A DNA stretch of 64,000 bases, taken from the NCBI GenBank assembly GCA_045587385.1, contig JAZNCE010000124.1, forward strand, positions 58,210 through 122,209, read 5' to 3'. Positions within the stretch are counted from its first letter, which is position 1; the number at the start of each line of letters is the position of its first letter. A program made the translations under genes and the position numbers. This document shows, one piece after another, positions 48,648 to 64,000 of this stretch. The notes beneath the pieces were generated by a model, which was given only the letters and a program-made list of their open reading frames with translations, had not been told where the DNA came from and did no database searches. This DNA is from Eubacteriales bacterium. Its GTDB lineage: Bacteria; Bacillota; Clostridia; Oscillospirales; CAG-272.

Positions 48648-51239
48648 TTAAAGACTTACGGCACGGTATACGCCGGAGCCGACGCAGCACGTATCATCCT
48701 CGCCGCAAACCTGTCCGGCGCCCTGCTCCGAGGTGATCTCAACGCCCTCCTCGAACGAAAGGACGGCATGCGTATTGGCGGGAACTCTGACGAGATATTC
48801 ATAGCCCTTGGCGGTCTTATCTGCACGCACTTCAATCGTGCCGTACTGACATTCATAGGTAACTGCTACGTGATCGACACCCTTGACGTGGTAAGGCTTG
48901 ACCACAAACGTCTTGAAGCCGGGCTCTGCGGGCTGAATACCGCCAAGGTATGCATAATAAATATATGCAAATCCCGCATGCATGGGATGGTTATACGAGG
49001 AAATGCCATGGGTGCGATCCGTTTCAACGTGGTGCATTTCCAGCACTTCCCAAACCGACGTCGCACCGTCATCCATCATAGTGCCAAAGCTGGTATGTCT
49101 GCGATTGAAGAGGATCTCCATTGCCGCATCTCCCATGCCCTCTTCAAAGAGCAAAGGAATGAGATACTTATTTCCGTAGATACCCGTGCTCATGGCATAA
49201 TCATCTGCCACGATGCTGCTGCGTAGAGATTCCAGAAGCGCAGCTCTGTCGTATTCGGGATACACGCCCAAATTCAACGCCACGGCATCGGATGCCCAAG
49301 TTCCGTACGTATGCTTTTCATGATCGTAAAAATGACGAATGAACGATTCACCGATACGGTCTGCCAAATCGGTATAATACTTGGCGTTATTATAGCCAAA
49401 TTGGTTTGAAAGCTCTGCCATCTTGATGCAAATCTCGTAAAACATCAGCGTAGAAGAATGAGGAACGGGAATTCTGCGCGGATTTGCTTCTCCTCCGGGA
49501 GGACACCAGTCACCAAGACCCACCGAGATGATATAGTCATCGGCTCTTGCCAGCTCGTGCTCTACCCACGCCTGCATCAGATCCCAGTTGCGTGTCACGG
49601 CAGCGGAGTCGTTGCAATAATGATACAGCCAATACGGAATGATGTTCTGTGCACAGCCCCATAATGGAGTTGCCTCACCGCATCCGCGCTTACCGGGCGC
49701 GATCATGGTCCAGGTACCGTAGACCTCCTTTTGTGTACGAATGTCGCTCAAATACTTTTCGTAAGACGATACCATATCATAATTCATGATACCGGTATTG
49801 CATACGATCTGCGCATCGCCCAGCCAGCCGCATTTTTCGCGTGCAGGACAGTCTTCGGGCAAACCGTGGTAATTGGAGCGGAAGGTACGGTCAATCAGCT
49901 TATGCAGCAAATTCAGGTCATCGGACGAGGATTCAAACGTGCCGTTTCGTTCCAGATCGGTAGACAGCGCACAACCGACCACAATATCAATTTCAGGCTC
50001 TTTACCGTATTCGTAACAATAGTCCACTCCCGTCAGTTCCACGTAACGGAAGCCGTGATAGGTAAATCGCGGACGCCATACTTCACCGTTCACATCTCCA
50101 CGTGCAATATAGATCTCTTGCTGGATGCACTGTGTAGCAAACGTGCCCGTTGAACGGAAGTCCAACTGCCCTGCTGCGTTGAGTGTTTCCGCACAGCGGA
50201 ACACGTAGATATGACCTCTGGAAGAACGAGGGAGATGAAATTCACAAACACCCGCAAAATTTTCACCCATATCAAAGATCCACGCGCCGTCGCTCTTGCC
50301 GCAGCAAGGTGTCACGCTGACCGCAGGAAATTGTCTGATCATGCGCACGGGAGGCATATTACAAGGCTTGAGTACGCCCTTGGGAGTTTGATCGACAACG
50401 CAATCGATCCAGCCTGCGTCGCTTCCGTCTGCCAGTGCAAAATCCGGCGTTTCCAATCTTGCGTCATAGGTTTCGCCGCCGTAGATATTATTGAGTATGA
50501 TCGGGCTGTTCTTGCTTTGCCACGTGGTGTCCGTAACAATTGCATCACGCGTGCCGTCGTCATATTCGATCTCAAGGCGCGCGATCAGGCATACGTTGCC
50601 GTAATAAAATCCACCGTAAGTCCATACCTGGCTCTGCGCGTAAAAGCCTTCGCCCAGCCAAGCCGCGATCGCATTTTTCTCATCGATGAACGATGTAACG
50701 TCATACGCACGATACAAGATTTCTTTTTCATAATTGGTCATGGGCGGATCAATATAATCATCGGCAATCTTTTTGCCGTTGATATAATATTCTGCGCATC
50801 CAAGTCCGCAAGCATACAGCGTTGCACGACGAACACCCAACTTAGCCTCAAACTTCTTTCTCAAATACGGCGCCCAACTGACAGTATATTCCGCAGGGGT
50901 AATCCACTGCGCCTGCCACATATCGGGATATAATTCGGTGGAAAACTGCAGCGATGCAATGGCGCTTCTGTCGTAATTGTCTTTGATGCAAAGATTCCAA
51001 ACGTATTCGGTAGCAGGTTGTAAAAACAGTTCGTCAAACGTGATATCCGAGGACTGATCGGATTCAACGGTATCCGAATCAAACACGATCTCGTTATCCT
51101 TGCAGATGGTAACGCGATAGGTTTTTTGAAGCACGTTTTCCCGTTCAGATTTCATCTTCCATGAAAATCTGATTCCATGCGTCAATACAAGATCAGGCGC
51201 GGGATTATGATCAATTCTTAAATCAAACAGTTGCAGCAT
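48648..51239 (-). CDS. alpha-L-rhamnosidase (GH78)
   Basis: 863 aa. N-terminal rhamnosidase domains, FRYVE, and six-hairpin core with DCPAREKCGWLGD. Confidence 0.85.
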   Translation of the reverse strand: MLQLFDLRIDHNPAPDLVLTHGIRFSWKMKSERENVLQKTYRVTICKDNEIVFDSDTVESDQSSDITFDELFLQPATEYVWNLCIKDNYDRSAIASLQFSTELYPDMWQAQWITPAEYTVSWAPYLRKKFEAKLGVRRATLYACGLGCAEYYINGKKIADDYIDPPMTNYEKEILYRAYDVTSFIDEKNAIAAWLGEGFYAQSQVWTYGGFYYGNVCLIARLEIEYDDGTRDAIVTDTTWQSKNSPIILNNIYGGETYDARLETPDFALADGSDAGWIDCVVDQTPKGVLKPCNMPPVRMIRQFPAVSVTPCCGKSDGAWIFDMGENFAGVCEFHLPRSSRGHIYVFRCAETLNAAGQLDFRSTGTFATQCIQQEIYIARGDVNGEVWRPRFTYHGFRYVELTGVDYCYEYGKEPEIDIVVGCALSTDLERNGTFESSSDDLNLLHKLIDRTFRSNYHGLPEDCPAREKCGWLGDAQIVCNTGIMNYDMVSSYEKYLSDIRTQKEVYGTWTMIAPGKRGCGEATPLWGCAQNIIPYWLYHYCNDSAAVTRNWDLMQAWVEHELARADDYIISVGLGDWCPPGGEANPRRIPVPHSSTLMFYEICIKMAELSNQFGYNNAKYYTDLADRIGESFIRHFYDHEKHTYGTWASDAVALNLGVYPEYDRAALLESLRSSIVADDYAMSTGIYGNKYLIPLLFEEGMGDAAMEILFNRRHTSFGTMMDDGATSVWEVLEMHHVETDRTHGISSYNHPMHAGFAYIYYAYLGGIQPAEPGFKTFVVKPYHVKGVDHVAVTYECQYGTIEVRADKTAKGYEYLVRVPANTHAVLSFEEGVEITSEQGAGQVCGEDDTCCVGSGVYRAVSL

Positions 51240-51839
51240 GTATTACCTCCATACCCAAATTACTTAGTACATACATTATAGCAGATAATTTCCGGATAGT
51301 CAATTTGATTGTAAGAAATTTCACATTCGACTTTTTCGTTTGGTACAACATCCACAAAAATGCAGACCGTTTTTGGTCGATGCGCACATTATCACAGCTG
51401 CGCTTGCGGCATTTGTGCACTTTGACAATACCAAGAGCATTATACATGGTGCGACAATCGTTCAATTCCCACATTAGCACCTAAAACAAGCGCATGCTAT
51501 CGAGCTTGCCGTCATCAGCGTCTCATGTTCTGTATTCCCCTTATATCATAATGCTTTTTCAGCATTGCAAAGCAAGTTTAGTATGCTTTACTTGCGTGAT
51601 TATCCGCGTCATCAAGCTCTTCGAATGGTGGTTTTTAGCGCTTTTCAACACGACAATCATGTCGTGTCAAGTCGGCTTCCTCGGATGCTTGTTATCCATT
51701 TGTTGTGATGCTGTTTTTGATACTTTTTGATTGTTTTAACACTATTTTTTTGCTGTTTTTCGCAATTTCGCTTAATTTACTAATATTGTCACTTTGTTAT
51801 GAAATTGCATATTGCAAAGAGCTATTTTTGCATTTTGTA

Positions 51840-51868
51840 TTGACAAATTGACGCTTCTAATATAAAAT
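51840..51868 (+). promoter_or_regulatory. sigma-A promoter of the LRR-protein gene
   Basis: TTGACA-17 nt-TAAAAT. Confidence 0.55.
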
Positions 51869-51924
51869 AAGTGCACAAACAACGGATTAGCTTCCGTGTA
51901 TTTTGAGGAAAGTGAGGTTTCGCC

Positions 51925-52587
51925 ATGCAACAAATCAAGGCATCTGCAGGACTTGCGTTCAGCGCAATCAACGATAATGAGTGTGCCCTCTCCGGCATTG
52001 GCACCTGTACAGACCACAATATCGTGATCCCCACTGAGCACATGGGAAGAACCGTAACAGGTATCGCTGATATGGCATTCGCTCATAATCACGAGATCAT
52101 TTCCGTATATGTTCCCGCGTCCGTCACCATGATCGGTGATTACGCTTTTGCATGGTGTCACGGACTGACTTCCGTCACCATGGAAAATCAAGGTGTAAGA
52201 GCAATCGGTGAGCGTTGCTTTATCGGATGCGACAGCATGACCAATCTTTACCTTGGCGACGCGATCCGCTCTATCGGCGAAAAGGCATTTGCTTTTTGCG
52301 CATCGCTGCAAACACTCTCGCTTCCCTATGGCACGCGCGAGGTTGGTCATTCCGCATTTGAGGGATGCACCTCTCTTGTAACCGTAATCCTTCCGGAAAC
52401 CCTGGATACCCTGCCCAACAACATGTTTGGCGCATGTATCTCCCTTCGTGACGTTTCCCTCTCCTCGCTGACCAAGTCCATCGGATACTACGCTTTCTCC
52501 TACTGCCGCAATCTGCGTAACATCAACGTAGGAAATGCACTGGTGGATGATCAAGCCTTCATGGGCTGCGAGGCTTTAGCAAGCTAA
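51925..52587 (+). CDS. leucine-rich repeat (BspA-type) protein
   Basis: 220 aa made of about 23-aa repeats of the form I.IP.SVT.IG..AF..C..L. No signal peptide is seen. Confidence 0.8.
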   Translation: MQQIKASAGLAFSAINDNECALSGIGTCTDHNIVIPTEHMGRTVTGIADMAFAHNHEIISVYVPASVTMIGDYAFAWCHGLTSVTMENQGVRAIGERCFIGCDSMTNLYLGDAIRSIGEKAFAFCASLQTLSLPYGTREVGHSAFEGCTSLVTVILPETLDTLPNNMFGACISLRDVSLSSLTKSIGYYAFSYCRNLRNINVGNALVDDQAFMGCEALAS

Positions 52588-52640: not shown

Positions 52641-52726
52641 ATTGATCAATTTCATCATATCCCTTGCATTTCCACCGCACATATGCTATACTTGAAGCAA
52701 CGACCAACATCTATGGAGGTGCTAAT

Positions 52727-55249
52727 ATGCAAGAACTCATGAATTCAAAAAACGCAAATTGGATCTCGTTTCGCTATCCCGGCACTAACGAGCTGGCTAA
52801 GATCAGCAACCCTTGGGAAAAACTTGATCTTACCGCACAGGCAAAGCCCATTCAGTCCAGACACGGTCTCGCTCTCTTCCGCAAGAGCTTTACGGCAAGC
52901 AAGGCTGACAGCGTCAAGATCGCAGCTACCGCTATGGGTATTTTCGATCTGTATTGCAACGGCAAGCGCGTCGGACGCTTTGACGAGAACGATAACGAGG
53001 TATATGACGAGCTCAAGCCCGGTTATTACGAATTTCGCAAGAGAGCTTTGTACTTTACATATGATCTGACTCCCTATCTGAAAGACGGTGAAAACGTCAT
53101 CCTTGCCGCAGTCGCTCCCGGTTGGAGAAACGGACGCATTTCCTTTGAAGCGTTCAAGGGTGAGCCCGAGGCGTTTTGCGCCGTTATCACCATCAACGAC
53201 GCTCCCCTTTTCACCGATGCAACCTGGCAGGCAAGCTGGGGCGGCAGAGTCCGTGCTGCAGATATCTGGGACGGCGAGCTGTATAACGCAAAATATCCTT
53301 CCTACGAAAGCATGAGCCAAGCAGGCTACGACACCTCCGATTGGTGCGCTCCCTCTGTTGACGAGCACGACGTAGAGATCACTCCCTTTATTGGTCCTAC
53401 CGTTATGATTCGTCCCGAGCTGACCAGAAAGCCCCAAACTTTAACCGTGCACGAAGGCACGATCGATAACGGCACTGAATACGGTGAGATCAACGTGGTC
53501 TATGCTGCTGAAAACCAGGACGCTGTCGTACTGAAAAAGGGTCAGACGCTGACTTACGATCTTGGTCAGAATATGGTTGGCTTCCCCGTGTTCACCGTTA
53601 AGGGCAATGCCGAAACCGCAATCCAGGTACGCGCATCCGAATTTCTCAATGACAGCGGCTCTACCGAGCGCGGCAACGACGGTCCTAAGGGTTCTGTTTA
53701 CACCATTAACTATAGAAGCGCAAGTGCTAAGGCATATTATCTGCTCGAGGGGAACCCCGCAGGAGAATCCTATCAGCCAACCTTTTCCTTCTTCGGCTTC
53801 CGCTATATTGAGATTATCGCTGACAATGACGTCGAAATTCTCTCCTTCTGCGCAAAGGTCATCGGTTCTGCGACCCGTGAGACCGGCAAGATGGAAACCT
53901 CGAACGCGCTTGTTAATCAGCTGATTTCCAACGTCATCTGGGGGCAGCGCGGCAACTACCTGTACGTACCCACCGACTGCCCGCAGAGAGACGAACGTCT
54001 TGGCTGGACCGGTGACACGCAGATCTTCTGTAACACCGCTGCATATAACGCAGACGTGCGCCTGTTCTTCCACAAGTGGTTACAGGATGCAAGAGACAGC
54101 CAGGCAAGCTGGGGCGGATATACCGACGTGGTTCCCGCTGCACGTGTCGTAGGCTGCGGCGGTGCTGCTTGGGGCGACGCAGGCATCATCGTTCCCTACG
54201 TCATGTACAAGATGTACGGTGACGTGGAGCTGTTGCGCGATCACTACGATTCCATGAAGAGATGCATGGATATGTTTGAAGCGCGCGACATCAACATGCC
54301 CCACAAACACTCCGCATACGGTGACTGGCTGGCATACGAGCCTACCGATCACTGGATGGTTTCTGTGTGCTACGCTGCATTTGACGCACGCTTGATGATC
54401 ACTATTGCGCGCGCACTTGGCAAGGAAAGCGATGCAAGACACTACGAAAGAGTTTTCGAAGGCTATAAGGCACACTATAACAGCTTCTACTGTGATGAAA
54501 ACGGCGATTTGCTGCCTCAGCACCAGACCCAGACCGCATACCTGATGGGACTGAAATTCCACCTGCTGCAGGAAAAGAACAGGCCCGCTGCAATTGCTGC
54601 GCTGCGTAAGAAGATCATCGACAACGGACACAAGCTGTCCACGGGCTTTGTCGGCACGGGTATTCTGGCGCAGACACTTGCAGAGATTGGTGAAAACGAT
54701 CTTGCATATTCCCTCTTGCTCCAGCGCGATAACCCCTCTTGGCTGTACTCCGTAGATCAGGGTGCAACCACCATTTGGGAAAGATGGAATTCCTACACCT
54801 TGGCAACCGGATTTGGTAACGTGGCAATGAATTCCTTCAACCACTACGCATACGGCGCAGTTCAGGAGTGGCTGTACAGACACGCTGCCGGTATTGAATA
54901 CGATCCTGCAGCTCCCGGCTTTGAGCGCGCAATCCTGCAGCCCAAGCCCGATACCAGAACGGCAGATGAGCTGCCCGAGGGTCAGGAAAACATCAAGTAT
55001 CTCAAGACTTCTTACGAGTCTTACCACGGCACCATCGTATCCAACTGGTCGACCGAAAACGGCTTTGACTACTATTGCGAGGTTGCAATGCCCACAAGAC
55101 TGTACCTGCCTATTCTGACCAAGAATGACAGCTTCACCTTAAACGGTGTCAGCCATAAGTTCTCGGAATTCCACCAGGCGCCCTACAACGACAGACTCAA
55201 CAGAATCGTCATTGATCTGGCTCCCGGCAAGTATCAATTCAATATGTAA
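52727..55249 (+). CDS. alpha-L-rhamnosidase (GH78), second copy
   Basis: 840 aa from MQELMNSK, after GGAGGTG. FGFRYIE and DCPQRDERLGWTGD motifs. Divergent from the first copy. Confidence 0.88.
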   Translation: MQELMNSKNANWISFRYPGTNELAKISNPWEKLDLTAQAKPIQSRHGLALFRKSFTASKADSVKIAATAMGIFDLYCNGKRVGRFDENDNEVYDELKPGYYEFRKRALYFTYDLTPYLKDGENVILAAVAPGWRNGRISFEAFKGEPEAFCAVITINDAPLFTDATWQASWGGRVRAADIWDGELYNAKYPSYESMSQAGYDTSDWCAPSVDEHDVEITPFIGPTVMIRPELTRKPQTLTVHEGTIDNGTEYGEINVVYAAENQDAVVLKKGQTLTYDLGQNMVGFPVFTVKGNAETAIQVRASEFLNDSGSTERGNDGPKGSVYTINYRSASAKAYYLLEGNPAGESYQPTFSFFGFRYIEIIADNDVEILSFCAKVIGSATRETGKMETSNALVNQLISNVIWGQRGNYLYVPTDCPQRDERLGWTGDTQIFCNTAAYNADVRLFFHKWLQDARDSQASWGGYTDVVPAARVVGCGGAAWGDAGIIVPYVMYKMYGDVELLRDHYDSMKRCMDMFEARDINMPHKHSAYGDWLAYEPTDHWMVSVCYAAFDARLMITIARALGKESDARHYERVFEGYKAHYNSFYCDENGDLLPQHQTQTAYLMGLKFHLLQEKNRPAAIAALRKKIIDNGHKLSTGFVGTGILAQTLAEIGENDLAYSLLLQRDNPSWLYSVDQGATTIWERWNSYTLATGFGNVAMNSFNHYAYGAVQEWLYRHAAGIEYDPAAPGFERAILQPKPDTRTADELPEGQENIKYLKTSYESYHGTIVSNWSTENGFDYYCEVAMPTRLYLPILTKNDSFTLNGVSHKFSEFHQAPYNDRLNRIVIDLAPGKYQFNM

Positions 55250-57734: not shown

Positions 57735-58964
57735 ATGAACAAGCATAGAATCACGTGTGTCCTTGCGGCGATCCTGCTTTCGGGCACGATTTTGGCATCT
57801 TGTGACAACGCTCCCTCCGAAGAGGTGCAGTCCACAGAGCCTATCACAGATACCCAAGAAATTACCGCAGAAGCACCGACCGAAACACAAGAAGAGACGA
57901 CCGAGGAGGAAGAAATGACTACCGAAGCAACAAATGTCATTCCCGAAGACGGAGATTACTACAAAAATCAAGTCAAGCTCAATAACAAGTCCATCATGTT
58001 CTGCGCCAACGAGTTCAAGGGTGAATTCAACTCGGTACATTTTGAGAATCACGGTCTGATGCTGGACGCAGGCGCAACCGAGGGTTATTTCATTTCCGAA
58101 GAGATTGACATGGGCGGCAGCTTCAAGAATATGCTTGCATCCTGGAACAGCTCCTCTGCGGGCGGCACGGTTGAAGTATCCGTATCCGTCAAGCTTGACG
58201 ACGGCAGCTTTACGACCTGGTATTCCTGGGGCGAATGGAGTGCGATTCCCGAAACGTCGGGCAGCAAATCCAATGAGGATGAATACGGCTCTGTGGGCAT
58301 TGATATTCTCACGCTCAAAAAGCAATGCCAAGGCATTGTTAAATACAGAATCGATATCAAGCAAACAGGAGAAAACTCCCCCATCGTTTACAACGTCACG
58401 CTTGCTTGTGACAAGCAAAACGGTAATCTGACTGCTCCTGCGGACACCTACAAAAAGCTGGACGTGCCGTACAGACGCCAGATGGACGTGCCCGAGATCG
58501 GCGGCAGCATTTGCTCTGCAACTTCCCTTTCCATGGTGATGCTCTACCACGGTGAGCAGATCGACGATATTGCCGATATTGCCTGGGGCGTGCGCGACTG
58601 GGGCGAGGAGATCTTTGGTAACTGGGCGTTCAACGTGGCATACGCAGGCGAGCTTGGTTATCAGACCTATATCGATTACTACGAGATCGACGCAATCAAG
58701 CATGCAATCTCTACGGGTCACCCCATCGTGTCCTCGATCCGCGTTAAGGCAGGTCAGCTTGCAGCCAGCGGACACCCGGGCTATACCACAAACGGACACT
58801 TGCTGTGCGTTGTGGGATATGAGGAAAAAGACGGTCAGAAATGGCTGCTGATCAACGACCCTGCTCATCCCGAGGTCAAGGCAATCTTAGAATCCGATTT
58901 CGAGAACATCTACAGAGGCGTTTCCTATATCGTGCAGTTGAGAGCCGATACCTACGCTGAATAA
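57735..58964 (+). CDS. lipoprotein with C-terminal peptidase C39-like domain
   Basis: Lipobox LASC, acidic T/E-rich linker, and a C-terminal domain with GGSICSATSLSMVMLYHG (Cys nucleophile context) and GHLLCVVGY. Confidence 0.65.
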   Translation: MNKHRITCVLAAILLSGTILASCDNAPSEEVQSTEPITDTQEITAEAPTETQEETTEEEEMTTEATNVIPEDGDYYKNQVKLNNKSIMFCANEFKGEFNSVHFENHGLMLDAGATEGYFISEEIDMGGSFKNMLASWNSSSAGGTVEVSVSVKLDDGSFTTWYSWGEWSAIPETSGSKSNEDEYGSVGIDILTLKKQCQGIVKYRIDIKQTGENSPIVYNVTLACDKQNGNLTAPADTYKKLDVPYRRQMDVPEIGGSICSATSLSMVMLYHGEQIDDIADIAWGVRDWGEEIFGNWAFNVAYAGELGYQTYIDYYEIDAIKHAISTGHPIVSSIRVKAGQLAASGHPGYTTNGHLLCVVGYEEKDGQKWLLINDPAHPEVKAILESDFENIYRGVSYIVQLRADTYAE

Positions 58965-58969
58965 TCAAT

Positions 58970-59003
58970 AGCTCCGCATCCCAAAATGATGCGGAGCTTT
59001 TTT
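58970..59003. terminator. bidirectional terminator
   Basis: AGCTCCGCATC-(7 nt)-GATGCGGAGCT followed by TTTTTT. Confidence 0.8.
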
Positions 59004-59409
59004 ATTGTTGATTCATACGCTCGGTTCCCCACCAATCGGGGACAAGGTCACCAAGCGTGACGGTGGAGAGCGTTTCAAGTTCGGTCAGAATCTCGATTTT
59101 GGGGCTGTGCTGATCCAGTTGCATCATCATTTCCCTACACGCGCCGCAGGGAGAGCCGACGCGCCCGTCACCCATTACACATACAAGCTTGACAATACGG
59201 CTCTCACCGTTTGTAATCATGTTGGCGATCGCATTGCGCTCGGCACACATACCAAGCCCCGAACAAGTGTCGATGCACACGCCCACGTACACGTTGCCCT
59301 GATCGGTCAAAATCGCCGCTGCCACGCCGCCCGCGTCCATAAAGGGCGTCAACACGCGCGGATTCAGGTATTGTTTTGCTATGTCATACAGCTCTTGCCA
59401 AGTATACAT
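59002..59409 (-). CDS. cdd: cytidine deaminase
   Basis: CAERNAI and PCGACRE zinc motifs. Start MYTWQE follows GGAGAA. Confidence 0.9.
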   Translation of the reverse strand: MYTWQELYDIAKQYLNPRVLTPFMDAGGVAAAILTDQGNVYVGVCIDTCSGLGMCAERNAIANMITNGESRIVKLVCVMGDGRVGSPCGACREMMMQLDQHSPKIEILTELETLSTVTLGDLVPDWWGTERMNQQ

Positions 59410-59537
59410 ATCAGTTTCTCCTATTCTCATATTACTTGTATTCTACCACAGAAATCGCAATTTTTCAAGTCTTTTTTGCATGGGGTTGCAATCTCGCAAA
59501 TTACATGCTATAATGAAAGAAAAAAGGAGGCTACGAC

Positions 59538-60458
59538 ATGACAGACCTTGAAAAGATCGCGTATGCTAAATCGTTTATAGATAAGCTGTCGGCGGGCATT
59601 GACCCAACGGATGGCACACTCATCCCCGAGGATGACGTGGCTGCCAAGGCACGTATTGTCGGGTGCTTTAGCTATGTGTCCGAGGTGCTTGGTAAACTGA
59701 TAAATGCTCCCAATGTCGTTGCAGACCTGTACCGTGTCCCCGAGCGCAAGCTGACGTCGCAGGTGTTGTCCTCGATCGAATGCACGCAATTTCCCGTCAG
59801 CATCAGCGCATTTGCGCAAAGAATTGACGCGGCGCTGCGCTCGTCCAAAAAGTTTACAGCGCATGATCTCACGCCTTGGCTGATGCATAACGGATATATT
59901 GAAAAGCTGATTGATTACAGAGATAAGTCCTTTAAGCGTCCTACACAAAAGGGTGTAGAGATCGGCATTATCGTGCAACAGTCCACGTCAAAGACAGGAA
60001 GGGTCACAAACTCGCTCAGGCTGAATATGTTTGCGCAGCAATTCATACGCGACCACCTGCACGAGATCCTGGCATTTTCGCCAAGTCCGCCCCACCCTGC
60101 AGATCGTATTCCTCTGGTCACCTTTACACTCTCTCAAGCACAGCTTGCAAAATTTGAAATTTCGGAGATGCCGCTCTCCATTTCGCAAATTGCCAGTGCG
60201 ATCAGCACTCTTAATCCGCAATCCAAGACGGGGCTCAAGGCAGGTGACCTTGCCGATTGGCTGATGCATCTCGGACTTTTACGCACCGTTGAGCACGGGG
60301 GCAAGAACTATAAGCTGCCCACCGATGCCGGCAAGCAGCTTGGCATTTTGGTCGAAGCTCGCCACGGGCTCAACAGCGATTACTATATCGCATTGTACAA
60401 TACGGATGCACAGAGGTTTATAATAGACAACATTCACGGCCTGATCAAGGTCTATTGA
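59538..60458 (+). CDS. hypothetical protein with internally duplicated ~95-aa domain
   Basis: 306 aa with an AAGGAGG RBS. The two repeats share P.SIS..A..I......K....DL..WLMH.G.......K..K.PT..G...GI.V ... AQ.FI.D..H..I. Confidence 0.65.
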   Translation: MTDLEKIAYAKSFIDKLSAGIDPTDGTLIPEDDVAAKARIVGCFSYVSEVLGKLINAPNVVADLYRVPERKLTSQVLSSIECTQFPVSISAFAQRIDAALRSSKKFTAHDLTPWLMHNGYIEKLIDYRDKSFKRPTQKGVEIGIIVQQSTSKTGRVTNSLRLNMFAQQFIRDHLHEILAFSPSPPHPADRIPLVTFTLSQAQLAKFEISEMPLSISQIASAISTLNPQSKTGLKAGDLADWLMHLGLLRTVEHGGKNYKLPTDAGKQLGILVEARHGLNSDYYIALYNTDAQRFIIDNIHGLIKVY

Positions 60459-60701: not shown

Positions 60702-60730
60702 TTGACTTTTATAATTTTATGTGGTAGAAT
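60702..60730 (+). promoter_or_regulatory. sigma-A promoter of tRNA-Pro
   Basis: TTGACT-17 nt-TAGAAT. Confidence 0.65.
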
Positions 60731-60768: not shown

Positions 60769-60844
60769 CTGGGTGTGGCGCAGCTGGTAGCGCGCTACCT
60801 TGGGGTGGTAGAGGCCGCAAGTTCAAGTCTTGTCACTCAGACCA
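60769..60844 (+). tRNA. tRNA-Pro (anticodon GGG), CCA encoded
   Basis: Acceptor CTGGGTG/CACTCAG, D-arm GCGC/GCGC, anticodon stem CTACC/GGTAG with loop TTGGGGT, T-arm GCAAG-TTCAAGT-CTTGT, and 3' ACCA. Confidence 0.88.
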
Positions 60845-60845
60845 G

Positions 60846-60876
60846 TTCGGAGGTTCATAACGAACCTCCGAATTTT
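60846..60876 (+). terminator. rho-independent terminator after tRNA-Pro
   Basis: TTCGGAGGTTC-(5 nt)-GAACCTCCGAA followed by TTTT. Confidence 0.8.
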
Positions 60877-61041
60877 CTTTATTTTACGGGCTTTTTCGGG
60901 CTTTTTGGTGATTGCACCGCCTCGAAATCGTCCGCTATTTTTTTGCCAAAAATCGGCTACGACCACATGTTTGACCACATTTGTCACGAAAAAGCTATAT
61001 TCCATAAGGGATTTCGGCACTTTTCGATTTTTATTTTATGC

Positions 61042-61082
61042 AAAATGACGGCGGTTCTCTGCTTTTGAGAACCGCCGTTTTA
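61042..61082 (-). terminator. terminator downstream of the DUF4062 gene (works in both orientations)
   Basis: ACGGCGGTTCTC-(7 nt)-GAGAACCGCCGT 12-bp stem flanked by A/T runs. Confidence 0.7.
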
Positions 61083-61137
61083 AACTTTTCAGTTGGTTTT
61101 TTCTTTGATTATCGCGGAGCAAAAATTCGTGTAGAAA

Positions 61138-62262
61138 TCACTCTTCAAACTCTTTTAACTCGTCAAGCGGAGGTTTAGAAGTGTCAATTTCCATACATTC
61201 TTTTAACCAGTCTGCTTTACTGTATCCTGTACCTGTCAATTCAAATATTTCACCTTTATATCCAACAGGTTTAACCCATCCCCATTCTACAAGTCGGTCT
61301 AAAGCCTCAACCCATCTTGCAGATTCTCTCCTTGAGTTATCAGCCATAAACTGTTTACCAGACGTACAGATCTGAGTAGGCGAACCGAGTGTCTGAATCT
61401 TTAAAATTTGACCATCGCCGTCGGCGGCATACACCAACAGAAAAGCGGAATCCACAGGAATATTGCCTACCTCATCTTGCCCAACAACCGATTTATCGCC
61501 CTCCGAATTTCCAATGATTAATGTTTCTTTTTCAACCCGAAACAATTTTTCGATATCCTCGCTCGTTGCCGTGGGAATATTCTCCCATGTTAACTGGTTG
61601 TTTTCCATATCGGTAAGTCTAATGCCGAATTGAGAAAGCATTTCTTTCATCTCTTCTAACAATTTCTGTTGATTTTCTCCGATTTCGGCATTGGCTCTAT
61701 TCCTCACTTCTGCCTCTTCGTTGATTACGTCTACAAGGTCTCGATATCGAACCCATCCTGCGTTTTCGTCAGCATAATTAATTGCGTTTCGAAACGCAGG
61801 TGAAGCCACATACTTCAAACTGTTTAAATCTGTGAAGAAATCAACAGTATTCCCCTCATCCTTTACTTTCTGTCTGAACTCCTCCAGCATTCTCATTTTT
61901 GTATATTTATCATATTTTTCATCTCCTACATCCTGTTCATTTGCAGTGATAGCCGAAGATTCCTTTATCAGTACAAGTATTGGTACTCCCTTAGCTTTGG
62001 CATAATTGTACTCTTTCTCCGTGTAGCTTATACCAGCATCATCATCGATTGAACCATAACGTCCTCCAATAACGAGAAGGTAAAAATCGCACTCATCAAT
62101 CATCTTCGTTATCACATCCCATTGGGTGGCAGGAGCTGCGTGAAATTGCTCCATGCCCACGGGGATGAAATTGTTTTCAAGTGCTACCCCCATCAATGCC
62201 TGTCTTTGTTCCTTTAAGTCCTCATAGGTAGAACTAATAAAAACCGAAAACTTTCTTTTCAT
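61138..62262 (-). CDS. DUF4062-domain protein with uncharacterised C-terminal region
   Basis: 374 aa from MKRKFSVF, after AAGGAG. FISSTYEDLKEQRQ, GMEQF, DECDFYLLVIGGRYGS and SYTEKEYNYAKAKGVPILVLIK fit the DUF4062 pattern. GC is much lower than in the flanks. Confidence 0.7.
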   Translation of the reverse strand: MKRKFSVFISSTYEDLKEQRQALMGVALENNFIPVGMEQFHAAPATQWDVITKMIDECDFYLLVIGGRYGSIDDDAGISYTEKEYNYAKAKGVPILVLIKESSAITANEQDVGDEKYDKYTKMRMLEEFRQKVKDEGNTVDFFTDLNSLKYVASPAFRNAINYADENAGWVRYRDLVDVINEEAEVRNRANAEIGENQQKLLEEMKEMLSQFGIRLTDMENNQLTWENIPTATSEDIEKLFRVEKETLIIGNSEGDKSVVGQDEVGNIPVDSAFLLVYAADGDGQILKIQTLGSPTQICTSGKQFMADNSRRESARWVEALDRLVEWGWVKPVGYKGEIFELTGTGYSKADWLKECMEIDTSKPPLDELKEFEE

Positions 62263-62343
62263 AATCAATATTCTCCTTACATGTTTTCCTTTTGTTGTGT
62301 TACCGTCTGGTGAATGAACTATCAAATCTATAAAAGACAATAA

Positions 62344-63381
62344 TTAGTTGCATTCCACCGCGACCTTGATCACTCCGTCGCGTTTATTTTCAAACAGCTC
62401 ATACGCCTCATTGATCTTCGAGAGCGGATAGGTATGCGTGATCAGCGGCTCGGTATCGAGCTTGCCCTCGGCAATCAGCTTCAGCGTTTCCTCGCAGTCG
62501 CAACCGTCAACGCCGCCGATCTTGAAGGTCAGGTTCTTGCCGTACATATCGGGCAATGGCAGAGTCTGCGCCTTGTCGTAAAGCGCCACCACCGTGACGA
62601 CGGCATTCGGGCGCGCGCACTGCCATGCAAGTTCGAAGGTGTTCTCTGCTCCGGCAACCTCCAGCACCACGTCTGCACCGCCGTGATCGCTGTTCTCACG
62701 AGCGAAATCAAGGCATTTTTCGGGCGTAACCGTCAGTACATCGGGATAGTGCTCATTCACAAACTTGATACGGTTCTCGTCCTTCTCGCACACGATAATG
62801 CGCTTGGGTTTCTTCAGCATCACGCATAGGAGCGTACAAATTCCCGTGGGGCCTGCTCCGATGATGAGAACGGTATCGTCCTCTGTGATCTCGGAGATCT
62901 TCGCCGCCCAATAGCCCGTGGCAAGAACATCGCCCACGAGCAGAGCTTGTCTATCAGTCACGCTATCGGGAATCTTATTCAGCCCCTGATCCGCAAATGG
63001 CACGCGAACGTACTCTGCCTGACCACCGTCAATGCGGCAACCAAGCGCCCAACCGCCATTCTTGTCGGTGCAGTTGTTGACAAAGCCCTTCTTGCAGAAG
63101 AAGCACTCGCCGCAGAAGGTCTCCACGTTGACTGCGACTCGATCTCCGGGCTTTACGTGCGTGACCGCCGATCCGACCTCTTCCACAATGCCGACCATTT
63201 CGTGTCCGACCGTAATTCCCTCCACCGCTCTCGGCACGCTTCCGTGTTTAATGTGCAAATCGCTCGAACAGATGCTCGCAAGCGTAACCTTGACAATCGC
63301 ATCCCTCTCGTGCTGTATCGTCGGCTTAGGCTTCTCCACCAAGCCGAATTTTCCTTTTGATATGTATGTATAGGTAAGCAT
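62344..63381 (-). CDS. zinc-dependent alcohol dehydrogenase (MDR family)
   Basis: 345 aa. GHEMVGIVEEVG catalytic zinc site, structural zinc CGECFFCKKGFVNNC, and GAGPTG NAD fold. Confidence 0.9.
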   Translation of the reverse strand: MLTYTYISKGKFGLVEKPKPTIQHERDAIVKVTLASICSSDLHIKHGSVPRAVEGITVGHEMVGIVEEVGSAVTHVKPGDRVAVNVETFCGECFFCKKGFVNNCTDKNGGWALGCRIDGGQAEYVRVPFADQGLNKIPDSVTDRQALLVGDVLATGYWAAKISEITEDDTVLIIGAGPTGICTLLCVMLKKPKRIIVCEKDENRIKFVNEHYPDVLTVTPEKCLDFARENSDHGGADVVLEVAGAENTFELAWQCARPNAVVTVVALYDKAQTLPLPDMYGKNLTFKIGGVDGCDCEETLKLIAEGKLDTEPLITHTYPLSKINEAYELFENKRDGVIKVAVECN

Positions 63382-63420
63382 AATTACCTCCTGATTTTCG
63401 CCTCAACAACTATCACATGG

Positions 63421-64000
63421 TTATGACCAGCTGTAATCTTTTAATTTCTGATATATCCGGCTTTTATTTGTATTAATTGTATCAACCAATACGCACCGTT
63501 CACCATCCAGCTTTAGAACTACTAGATGATCATCATATATGAAAGACAAAAATGTATCCTTAGCAGGTACTTGCTTACTCCTATACTTCATTGCTTCTGC
63601 AAAATCGTTAAACATAGCTTTTTTTATTTCTGCAACTGCATAATTGAAGTTATAGTCGTTTTTAAAGTACAAATCAAGCGGATATAACATCAATATGTTT
63701 TTATCTGTTTCCAATGTTTGCAAAAAAGAAACAACATCATATTCAACACTGCCATAAGAATGCTTCTCTTTTCTCAAATTTTCCAACTGATTCAGATTAT
63801 AACTTCTTAGTGCTGCGTGTAATCGAGTCACCTGCATAGAAGCGTTTTCCTTCCTTGGTGGAGATGATCCATACATGCCTTGCGTATACACAGTAACTTG
63901 ATGAGATAATTCTCTCCTTGCTTGCATTCCAGTTTGTCCCAGTATCAATTTAAAATCTAGTCCATACTCTCCTGCGTAACAATCGCATTCTCCGGCATCT
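63421..64000 (-). CDS. hypothetical protein, 5' end beyond window
   Basis: I translated the minus-strand frame upstream of the track's TTG start (63948). It stays open to position 64000 (...DAGECDCYAGEYGLDFKLILGQ...). Very AT-rich, and no family recognised. Confidence 0.5.
   Translation of the reverse strand, partial: DAGECDCYAGEYGLDFKLILGQTGMQARRELSHQVTVYTQGMYGSSPPRKENASMQVTRLHAALRSYNLNQLENLRKEKHSYGSVEYDVVSFLQTLETDKNILMLYPLDLYFKNDYNFNYAVAEIKKAMFNDFAEAMKYRSKQVPAKDTFLSFIYDDHLVVLKLDGERCVLVDTINTNKSRIYQKLKDYSWS

Follow-up and report, generated by a model that had tools for sequence, protein, structure and literature searches.

A protein of 374 residues is encoded beside a tRNA-Pro gene near the end of the window, a stretch of 64,000 nucleotides from an Eubacteriales bacterium. 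This raises the question of which function the protein performs, and whether its gene stands alone or belongs to a larger mobile structure. An earlier reading of the letters without database searches, here called the sequence-only reading, had proposed a small defence islet with a single gene.

The tRNA-Pro border and the adjoining island

The tRNA-Pro gene (anticodon GGG) is located at 60769..60844 on the + strand (ARAGORN; Rfam RF00005, 60.7 bits). It is preceded by a promoter-like TTGACT-17-TAGAAT at 60702-60730 and followed by a terminator hairpin (60844..60874, +) with a 13-pair stem and a T run, in agreement with the sequence-only reading, which had placed the tRNA and its terminator directly before a low-GC patch. 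The 3' part of the tRNA gene, 45 nt in length (60800..60844, +), is a putative att-like recombination core. It is 100% identical in locus L056 and also present in L005, adjoining island DNA in both, with unrelated sequence in place of the tRNA 5' half upstream of it; ARAGORN calls no tRNA at the detached core in either locus. The core recurs in these two loci; the window contains no second copy of it, and no distal direct repeat was found in contigs 92-99% identical to the last 0.7-1.65 kb of the window. The recurrence of the core detached from the tRNA points to the tRNA 3' end as the border of a tRNA-integrated island, with tRNA-Pro(GGG) as the probable integration target. The non-coding spacer that separates the tRNA from the DUF4062 gene (60845..61137) is conserved, with 88-95% identity in L005, L047-L051, L001, and L055, contains tandem short repeats (60882-60901 and 60961-60984), matches no Rfam family, and may represent the arm region of the att site.

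Behind the spacer follows the DUF4062-winged-helix gene (61138..62262, -; Pfam and homologs), a candidate single-gene NADase abortive-infection defence gene. It has an AAGGAG ribosome-binding site at 62278-62273 and, as had been suggested, an intrinsic terminator of its own at 61078-61048 (-; inverted repeat I1) with a 12-pair stem including 8 GC pairs. Upstream of it lie a gene of the Zn-dependent alcohol dehydrogenase family (ADH; 62344..63381, -; Pfam ADH_N/ADH_zinc_N, NCBIfam) and the C-terminal part of an orphan 249-aa gene (P0271, P249; 63421..64000, -), which is truncated by the window end and was recognised from sister contigs. The reading frame listed as 'orf175' is this C-terminal part of the 249-aa gene running off the window.

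The ADH gene is conserved beside the orphan gene in L054-L058, and in sister contigs the orphan gene is located directly downstream of GajB. Contigs 92-99% identical to window positions 62351-64000 encode GajA (E 3e-258), GajB (E 3e-221), PDC-M42A/B, and one or two tyrosine integrases about 7 kb past the window end; this Gabija and integrase part beyond the window is deduced from contigs overlapping only its last 0.7-1.65 kb. The earlier observation that no integrase is visible holds for 60.8-64 kb and for the window as a whole. In sister contigs, Stk2 (E 1e-226) follows the ADH gene in the slot held here by DUF4062. The content of this slot varies between DUF4062, Stk2, and other genes, and ADH stays in the backbone, which according to the sister contigs would consist of tyrosine integrases, PDC-M42, Gabija, the orphan gene, and ADH. 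The slot occupied by the DUF4062 gene takes variable cargo and lies at the tRNA-Pro end of what is predicted to be an integrative defence island. The proposal of a tRNA-adjacent defence islet is supported by the integrases, Gabija, PDC-M42, and Stk2 of the sister islands, and the islet is probably the edge of a larger island extending past the window. An allelic slot of this kind near Gabija illustrates clearly how cargo is exchanged in a defence island linked to a tRNA.

The base composition of this region is foreign, and gene content varies between relatives. The DUF4062 gene has 40.8% GC compared with 47.4% upstream (z = -2.25, lowest 2.3% of equal-size windows), and its GC3 of 38% lies below that of all 41 long background ORFs (mean 54.1%, sd 4.2, minimum 42.3). 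The housekeeping background amounts to 47% GC, rather than the 50% estimated by eye. Further patches of about 40% GC occur at roughly 10.7-11 kb, 19.5-21 kb, and 50.8 kb of the window, and therefore the bulk GC of the gene alone is not unique. The compositional change noted in the sequence-only reading is confirmed, and the GC3 shift is unique in the window. The ADH gene deviates in the other direction, with 54.8% GC and a GC3 of 68%, above every background ORF, so that the island edge contains GC3 outliers both ways. The value of about 65% G+C given for ADH referred to one line; averaged over the gene it is 55%. At 35% GC, the last ORF of the window is lower than any equal-size window.

In total, 1,488 homologs of the DUF4062 protein were found, many of them in relatives of Faecalibacterium, Blautia, and Dorea. 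Copies with approximately 80% identity occur in Lachnospiraceae, Oscillospiraceae/Faecalibacterium, and Anaerovoracaceae. Across more than 40 loci, DNA homology is limited to the gene and about 30 nt, and no neighbour or partner gene is conserved, in line with the suggestion of a stand-alone gene. The neighbours include ICE-type genes, CBASS, Wadjet, Dpd, HEC-02, and methyltransferases, and many homologs are found within ICE-like regions with ArdC/SNF2-methylase giants, Dcm, ParM-like genes, Cna-B adhesins, and integrases nearby. This distribution identifies the DUF4062 gene as a horizontally mobile, gene-sized cassette among families of gut Clostridia.

Domain architecture of the DUF4062 protein

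Residues 1-172 (61747..62262, -) form the predicted TIR-like DUF4062 NADase core, which is supported by Pfam, alignments with KpSwz and Eva01, and Foldseek. The DUF4062-type N-terminal domain noticed by eye was verified by the Pfam profile PF13271, which matches residues 7-88 over profile positions 2-82 of 82 (E 2e-29, 102.1 bits against a cut-off of 24.7). KpSwz is a Swarozyc protein from Klebsiella pneumoniae (Osinski et al., bioRxiv 10.64898/2026.05.01.722283; PDB 10wc/11cq/11cv) and shares 34% identity with the window protein over residues 3-201 (phmmer E 1.7e-26, BLASTP E 2e-31). The alanine of the KpSwz E97A mutant chain aligns with E84 (codon 62011-62013), and the putative catalytic glutamate is thus kept. 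The Evangelion protein Eva01 derives from S. aureus pMW2-type plasmids (Ibarra-Chavez et al., bioRxiv 10.64898/2026.06.25.731849); a staphylococcal plasmid protein of the pMW2/Eva01 type is 38% identical over residues 2-175 (E 6e-36). The Eva01 residues F11, E87-Y88, and W162 correspond to F8, E84-Y85, and W170, and its Q/W/E to Q47-W48. Defence by Eva01 is lost on mutating F11, E87, or W162 (bioRxiv 10.64898/2026.06.25.731849). Accordingly aligned, the window protein contains the glutamate of the 'SxTE.E-Y' region, the N-terminal aromatic residue, and the Q-W motif, while G169-W170 aligns with the 'SGW' W162 of Eva01 at the core-AUX junction. The conserved motifs F8, Q47-W48, E84-Y85, and G169-W170 are invariant in 63 homologs.

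The AF2 model of the core has a beta-alpha repeat topology, with moderate confidence for the N-terminal domain. Foldseek matched BcmB, TIR-STING, SPARTA TIR, NDT, and SARM1 (probability 0.97-1.0) with modest E values of 4.5e-4 to 1e-2, as well as DNPH1, which agrees with a flavodoxin-like TIR/NDT fold. Together with the KpSwz homology, these TIR, NDT, and BcmB folds bear out the grouping of DUF4062 with TIR/NDT-like Rossmannoid modules. The N-terminal 170-200 residues are homologous to two experimentally characterised single-gene defence NADases, KpSwz/Swarozyc and Eva01/Evangelion, and the window protein is likely to have NADase activity.

The coiled-coil-like stretch recognised earlier corresponds to a long predicted helix, the stalk of residues 173-209 (61636..61746, -), for which AF2 gave low monomer confidence. 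Over residues 173-201, this helix can be aligned with the beginning of the KpSwz stalk. A low-confidence linker (residues 210-264; 61471..61635, -; pLDDT < 50) connects it to a C-terminal winged-helix (AUX) domain of residues 265-360 (61183..61470, -), the presumed sensor, and an acidic tail at 61141-61182 (-). The sequence-only reading had described a W/G-rich domain with an acidic tail correctly, but the family it did not recognise is a confident winged helix: a domain-only AF2 model of the C-terminal 115 residues reached a pLDDT of 90.1 and a pTM of 0.82, and Foldseek matched the winged helices of eS10, SSV1 F-93, and MarR. The domain also resembles HxlR regulators.

This winged helix has 577 homologs, mostly fused to TIR. 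Among 61 representative proteins containing it, TIR_2 is present in 36, DUF4062 in nine, and ThsA_Macro and SEFIR in one each. For the TIR partners, matches to PADLOC spbK reach E values as low as 4e-69, and the predominant fusion to SpbK-type canonical TIR suggests an exchangeable sensor module. No relation to the KpSwz AUX domain was found with the profile of the C-terminal domain (hhalign probability 0.2%), a profile search of the PDB returned no KpSwz match at E <= 10, and the Eva01 AUX region has no detectable sequence similarity to the domain. Because of this lack of detectable similarity between the AUX domains, trigger and activation mode are not transferable from KpSwz or Eva01.

Proposed function and alternative explanations

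Single-gene DUF4062+AUX proteins were shown experimentally to be NAD+-depleting abortive-infection systems, with both NAD+ depletion and abortive infection depending on the catalytic glutamate and the AUX region (bioRxiv 10.64898/2026.05.01.722283; 10.64898/2026.06.25.731849). The 374-aa protein is probably a stand-alone abortive-infection anti-phage defence protein of this Swarozyc/Evangelion kind. Its N-terminal TIR-like domain would act as an NAD+ glycohydrolase that dimerisation or oligomerisation through the stalk would hold in an inactive state. Once a phage infects, the C-terminal winged helix would recognise a phage-derived trigger, either a multimeric structural protein (e.g., portal) or a nucleic-acid intermediate. 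Binding of the trigger would cluster or re-orient the TIR-like domains, NAD+ would be hydrolysed, and the infected cell would no longer support phage replication. In this scheme, NADase activity, abortive infection, the sensing role of the winged helix, and the nature of the trigger are inferred.

The protein might instead serve the mobile element, depleting NAD+ independently of infection in element competition, entry exclusion, or post-segregational stabilisation of ICEs or islands, with the winged helix sensing foreign DNA or conjugation intermediates rather than phage. The many homologs inside ICE-like regions agree with such a role, as do the nucleic-acid binding common for winged helices and the binding of recombination-like DNA substrates by Eva01 (bioRxiv 10.64898/2026.06.25.731849). 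However, ICE-borne TIR NADases such as SpbK, an ICEBs1 protein of Bacillus subtilis activated by the SPbeta portal YonE, are genuine anti-phage systems (PMC12847820, PMC8880864). The slot is moreover shared with the anti-phage kinase Stk2 and lies beside Gabija, and no cognate antitoxin or partner gene was found across the DUF4062 loci. We consider this role unlikely.

Less likely still is a multi-gene operon of DUF4062 with the upstream ADH, possibly including the 249-aa orphan, e.g., as a coupled NAD(P)-metabolising module. ADH and DUF4062 share a strand with a gap of 81 nt, and no promoter-like site or terminator is predicted between them in the window, so that the DUF4062 gene may be co-transcribed with ADH here. 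The adjacency is repeated in L005 and L047-L051, and ADH is a weak PADLOC mad2 match (E 4.7e-6). In contrast, ADH is absent at more than 35 loci whose DUF4062 genes are 75-85% identical, L001 encodes an identical DUF4062 protein behind a different gene, ADH persists when the slot holds Stk2 or other cargo, and the characterised DUF4062 systems are single genes. ADH belongs to the conserved island backbone and is dispensable for the DUF4062 cassette. A housekeeping or regulatory protein in an incidental island location, either a transcription factor that combines a winged helix with a receiver-like domain binding nucleotides or a salvage enzyme similar to nucleoside 2-deoxyribosyltransferase, would fit the Foldseek matches to NDT, DNPH1, and BcmB N-glycosidases and the resemblance to MarR and HxlR regulators, but is highly improbable given the patchy distribution across families at about 80% identity, the foreign GC3, the conserved E-Y, F, and W motifs of defence NADases, the almost exclusive partnering of the C-terminal domain with TIR-type effector domains, and the defence-island context.

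Within the preferred reading as an abortive-infection protein, a more far-reaching proposal is tentative and, taken as a whole, has somewhat less than an even chance. The C-terminal winged helix would be a hitherto undescribed phage sensor of gut Clostridia, exchangeable as a module and combined with at least four kinds of NAD-targeting effectors (DUF4062, SpbK-type TIR, ThsA-Macro, and SEFIR). It may recognise a trigger other than those of KpSwz (portal) and Eva01 (recombination intermediates). If this applies, canonical TIR and DUF4062 would be functionally interchangeable outputs of one sensor. Separately, the gene together with its promoter would spread as a sharply delimited cassette among ICEs and islands in different bacterial families; its flanks do not reveal the mechanism. 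The same sensor domain on DUF4062 or SpbK-type TIR constitutes a natural experiment on the recombination of sensors and effectors. Recognition of DUF4062 NADases as immune effectors dates only from 2026, and the tested examples are only proteobacterial and staphylococcal; with this lineage, which is abundant in human and animal guts, the family would come to include the dominant anaerobic commensals.

Comparison with known systems

PADLOC v2.0.0 (2023) and NCBIfam do not recognise the window protein, as expected for a family described in 2026. With Swarozyc, the protein shares a single polypeptide composed of a DUF4062 TIR-like core, a 'GWVR' junction, a helical stalk, and a C-terminal AUX domain of winged-helix type. 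Core and stalk are homologous over residues 3-201, with E97 of KpSwz equivalent to E84, and both proteins occur in defence islands or spread by horizontal gene transfer. The five tested Swz proteins have similar AUX domains (bioRxiv 10.64898/2026.05.01.722283), whereas that of the window protein has no detectable sequence relation to the KpSwz AUX, and the common winged-helix type is a resemblance rather than an established homology. Further differences are the additional linker of about 55 residues and the acidic tail, portal sensing, which was demonstrated for KpSwz only, and the hosts, which are gut Clostridia here and Enterobacteria for KpSwz.

Evangelion systems likewise consist of one gene, with a DUF4062 core followed by a non-annotated AUX region and no conserved partner gene; the functional residues of Eva01 are shared, and both proteins are carried on mobile elements. 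However, the AUX of Eva01 is helical, comprises about 150 residues, and is unrelated to that of the window protein. In the comparison with Eva01, the named lineage considered, only the core aligns and no plasmid match covers more than 48% of the query, which argues against full-length homology. Eva01 is plasmid-borne in staphylococci and enterococci and tied to phage recombination functions, in contrast to the window protein on chromosomal islands and ICEs of Clostridia. Eva02, another Evangelion lineage, gave no protection against the phages tested (bioRxiv 10.64898/2026.06.25.731849).

SpbK is also a single-gene, element-borne NADase, as predicted for the window protein, with clustering of the TIR domains driven by a separate sensor, and SpbK-type TIR proteins carry the winged helix of the window protein with up to ~75% identity. 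The window protein contains DUF4062 instead of a canonical TIR, and SpbK of B. subtilis senses via an N-terminal 4-helix bundle, with no winged helix described (PMC12847820, PMC8880864). Stk2 is a single-gene abortive-infection system in the same post-ADH slot of sister islands, and Gabija belongs to the shared island backbone. Both are unrelated in protein and mechanism, Stk2 being a kinase and Gabija an OLD nuclease plus UvrD helicase, and both count as evidence from context only. The window protein is probably a new relative of the recently described single-gene NAD+-depleting anti-phage systems; its lineage would open no new category, and TIR clustering with NAD+ depletion is the expected mechanism.

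N-terminal DUF4062 core

The 374-aa product matches the Pfam family DUF4062 with an E value of 2e-29, as the sequence-only reading had anticipated (PF13271). Residues 3-172 align with the solved structures of KpSwz, the single-gene DUF4062 NADase (Swarozyc) of Klebsiella pneumoniae (PDB 10wc, 11cq, 11cv; E 1.7e-26). A reconstructed KpSwz sequence shows 34% identity across residues 3-201 (E 2e-31), an alignment that runs through the 'GWVR' junction into the beginning of the helical stalk. E84 of the window protein pairs with the alanine of the deposited KpSwz E97A chain ('TEKEY' versus 'TEKAF'). Residues 2-175 are also 38% identical to a staphylococcal pMW2-type plasmid protein of the Eva01 type, for which the plasmid search matched 201 Staphylococcus plasmids. 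F11, E87 and W162 of Eva01 correspond to F8, E84 and W170 in the window protein, where F8, Q47-W48, E84, Y85 and W170 are invariant among 63 homologs. Scans of the 374-aa protein with PADLOC and NCBIfam gave no match, which is uninformative since these libraries do not yet cover the family.

In the AlphaFold2 model, a long helix (173-209) leads from a beta-alpha TIR-like domain (residues 5-163) to a disordered linker (210-264), after which the chain folds into a compact C-terminal domain. Foldseek searches with the full model retrieved BcmB, TIR-STING, SPARTA-TIR, NDT and SARM1. These matches were confined to the N-terminal TIR/NDT part, and the C-terminal domain was therefore modelled alone.

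C-terminal winged-helix domain

The C-terminal domain has no match in Pfam, NCBIfam or PADLOC. The sequence-only reading had recognised no family in this part of the protein; a separate model built from a diverse alignment has the fold H-β-β-H-β-β-H (pLDDT 90.1, pTM 0.82), and the domain gives weak matches to the winged-helix proteins eS10, SSV1 F-93, MarR and HxlR. The AUX of KpSwz, its C-terminal sensor-type region, is likewise reported to adopt an HTH/winged fold (bioRxiv 10.64898/2026.05.01.722283). Homology between the two domains was undetectable in sequence and profile tests (hhalign probability 0.2%), and sequence comparison detected none to the AUX of Eva01.

Residues 181-374, searched against 1.84 billion representative proteins, yielded 577 relatives. 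In most of them the similarity is restricted to the final ~115 residues, where identity reaches up to 75%, and DUF4062 is absent. Among the 61 representatives that reach 250 aa, the partner domain is TIR_2 in 36, DUF4062 in nine, and ThsA_Macro and SEFIR in one each. The TIR domains of these relatives are recognised by PADLOC's SpbK model, with E values down to 4e-69. One winged-helix module is thus joined alternately to a canonical TIR domain or to DUF4062, as one would expect if it acts as a sensor or adaptor for interchangeable NAD-consuming effectors. The IMG/VR contigs L063 (1-1398) and L064 also encode SpbK-type TIR proteins with a FISHSSKD motif that terminate in this winged helix, and the module is therefore present on virus-classified elements as well.

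The tRNA-Pro island and the spread of the gene

tRNA-Pro(GGG) (60769-60844, + strand; ARAGORN and Rfam) has a promoter-like TTGACT-17-TAGAAT upstream and a terminator hairpin (60844-60874). The DUF4062 gene (61138-62262, - strand) carries an AAGGAG site 11 nt before its ATG. Its own terminator, already noticed by eye, is a hairpin with a 12-bp stem (61078-61048, - strand). A Zn-ADH-family gene (62344-63381, - strand) and an ORF running past the window end (63421 to beyond 64000, - strand) complete the locus.

The base composition of the locus is truly anomalous, in both directions. The DUF4062 gene has 40.8% GC, within the lowest 2.3% of equal-size windows, and a GC3 of 38%, compared with 54.1±4.2% across 41 background ORFs (lowest 42%). 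Because a bulk GC of ~40% is found elsewhere in the window too, GC3 carries more weight. The ADH gene has the highest GC3 of the window (68%; background maximum 62%), and the last ORF, with 35% GC, lies below every equal-size window. The description of a compositionally foreign gene beside tRNA-Pro thus holds. The GC values counted by hand were roughly right, except that the ADH gene averages 55% rather than 65%, and the background is 47%.

Directly left of the tRNA lies a 306-aa ORF (59538-60458, + strand) with no match in Pfam, NCBIfam or PADLOC, preceded by a cytidine deaminase-like gene (59002-59430) and a lipoprotein-like C39-type peptidase gene (57735-58964). To find an empty tRNA-Pro site, the ADH from inside the island and two left-flank proteins (306-aa ORF, cytidine deaminase) were looked up by exact sequence, but none has a record in the collection. 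Further left are two alpha-L-rhamnosidase genes (48648-51239, - strand; 52664-55249, + strand), which enclose a 260-aa ORF without Pfam match (51772-52554); GrpB and pilin-like genes are nearby. This is a usual carbohydrate-utilisation context of gut commensals, which marks the left flank as chromosomal.

The ORF at the window end encodes the last 175 aa of an orphan protein of 249 aa; this protein matches no family, and 5.8 billion proteins contain just three clusters of it. Contigs encoding the exact 249-aa protein match window positions 62351-64000 at 92-99% identity (99.4% in L061), and their homology to the window stops 7 nt inside the ADH stop region. Their gene order comprises tyrosine integrase(s), DUF3990 + HTH (PDC-M42A/B in PADLOC), GajA (E 3e-258), GajB (E 3e-221), the 249-aa gene, ADH and a variable slot. 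This slot is occupied by DUF4062 in the window and in the related contigs L005 and L047-L051, by the abortive-infection kinase Stk2 (E 1e-226) in L054, L057 and L058, and by other genes in L055 and L056. The 249-aa orphan always lies between GajB and ADH and may be a Gabija-associated accessory gene. Despite its high GC3, the ADH gene is fixed in the low-GC island backbone, always adjoining the orphan downstream of GajB in the sister contigs; it also shows a weak PADLOC match to mad2 (E 4.7e-6).

At the tRNA border, the whole tRNA-Pro is common to L047 and L048. In L005 (2202-2246) and L056 (12572-12616), only 45 nt from the 3' end of the tRNA are present (window 60800-60844; identity in L056, 100%). 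In both, the fragment borders on island DNA at one end and on unrelated sequence at the other, and ARAGORN found no tRNA at these sites. Such a detached fragment is the signature of a putative site-specific att-like core inside the tRNA. No second copy of the tRNA 3' end was found within the window, and blastn-short searches of integrase-bearing contigs gave only short, chance-level matches. A match between the DNA beyond the 45-nt core in L005 and L056 and the integrase end of the island would have pointed to an attP or to a tandem array, but there was none; the junctions may be attP sites, tandem elements or secondary sites. In L005, the next gene after the 45-nt copy opens with an excisionase-like HTH (MTIAEASERWGISQRQVQ...). 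The adjoining 293-nt non-coding spacer (60845-61137) has no Rfam match and is 88-95% conserved in unrelated contexts (L001, L005, L047-L051; internal in L055). It contains the tandem short repeats GACCACAT(G)TTT (twice, 60961-60984) and TTTT(A/T)CGGGC (twice, 60882-60901), which may be arm sites of a recombinase or excisionase.

The gene has 1,488 homologs, the best 120 of which are full-length with at least 77% identity. Copies of ~80% identity occur in GTDB species representatives of Frisingicoccus, Blautia, Dorea, Acetatifactor, Faecalibacterium prausnitzii and Faecousia, and in an Anaerovoracaceae MAG. DNA similarity to the window is limited to ~61137-62293, the gene plus roughly 30 nt. 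A subset of loci from different bacterial families (L006, L008, L011, L016, L017, L020, L025, L030) additionally shares ~75 nt of promoter-like sequence upstream (…TTGGTAAATTC…TATACT…) and ~40 nt downstream, beyond which homology stops abruptly. Inspection of the cassette borders revealed neither target-site duplications nor inverted repeats, and no repeats that account for gene-sized movement. Many metagenome and MAG contigs (L033, L038-L046) break off inside the gene, a pattern to be expected where several genomes in a sample carry near-identical copies that disrupt assembly.

No conserved neighbour gene was found across the DUF4062 loci surveyed. ICE-type neighbours include an ArdC/SNF2-methylase giant, Dcm, a ParM-like gene, a Cna-B adhesin, XRE regulators and tyrosine integrases. 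Known defence genes also adjoin the gene: in L002, a SMODS-domain protein is encoded with an S_4TM-domain protein, and PADLOC assigned other neighbours to a CBASS-type cyclase with 4TM effector, JetA/JetB, DpdF, HEC-02, IetS, methyltransferases and several PDC candidates. A prophage origin is ruled out, because INPHARED phage genomes contain no close homolog and IMG/VR only a single full-length copy. The gene-context survey likewise led to the rejection of ADH as an obligatory partner.

Proposed mechanism and relation to known systems

Two 2026 preprints provide direct experimental precedent (bioRxiv 10.64898/2026.05.01.722283; 10.64898/2026.06.25.731849). In KpSwz, the DUF4062 NADase is kept inactive in stalk-linked dimers until the winged AUX engages the phage portal; NAD+ is then cleaved to ADPR and nicotinamide and infection aborts, for which E97 and the AUX are needed (bioRxiv 10.64898/2026.05.01.722283). 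Eva01, an Evangelion system and likewise a single-gene DUF4062+AUX protein, causes NAD+ depletion and has been connected with phage recombination functions. It requires F11, E87, W162 and the AUX, and mutation of any of these three residues abolishes defence (bioRxiv 10.64898/2026.06.25.731849). SpbK, the portal-activated NADase of ICEBs1, follows the same clustering logic with a canonical TIR domain (PMC12847820, PMC8880864).

By analogy, a trigger would cluster or re-orient the TIR-like domains of the window protein, NAD+ would be depleted and infection would be aborted. We consider this mechanism probable and the best supported, given the conserved core with junction Trp and stalk, the sensor-like domain shared with SpbK-type TIR proteins and the defence-island slot that elsewhere contains Stk2. 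The trigger is not transferable from KpSwz or Eva01, as the AUX domains are unrelated in sequence. The small defence islet with sensor/effector-like architecture proposed by the sequence-only reading gains support from the core homology, the conserved motifs and the slot shared with Stk2 beside the Gabija backbone. Beyond published work, the analysis adds a winged-helix module common to DUF4062 and SpbK-type TIR proteins, a DUF4062-winged-helix lineage abundant in gut Clostridia, and an allelic slot for DUF4062 or Stk2 within a tRNA-Pro island that carries Gabija.

The window protein shares the core and the start of the stalk with KpSwz, whereas its AUX has no detectable sequence relation, which sets it apart from Swarozyc in the strict sense. 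It does not belong to the Eva01 lineage either. SpbK differs in its canonical TIR domain, but SpbK-type TIR relatives carry the winged-helix domain of the window protein. In every respect that could be tested, the protein has the features of the DUF4062 TIR-like superfamily and of 'Evangelion' in the broad sense, namely a single gene, a conserved core and a diversified AUX. The kind itself was already described in 2026, and the window protein is thus a new candidate member with a distinct presumed sensor domain.
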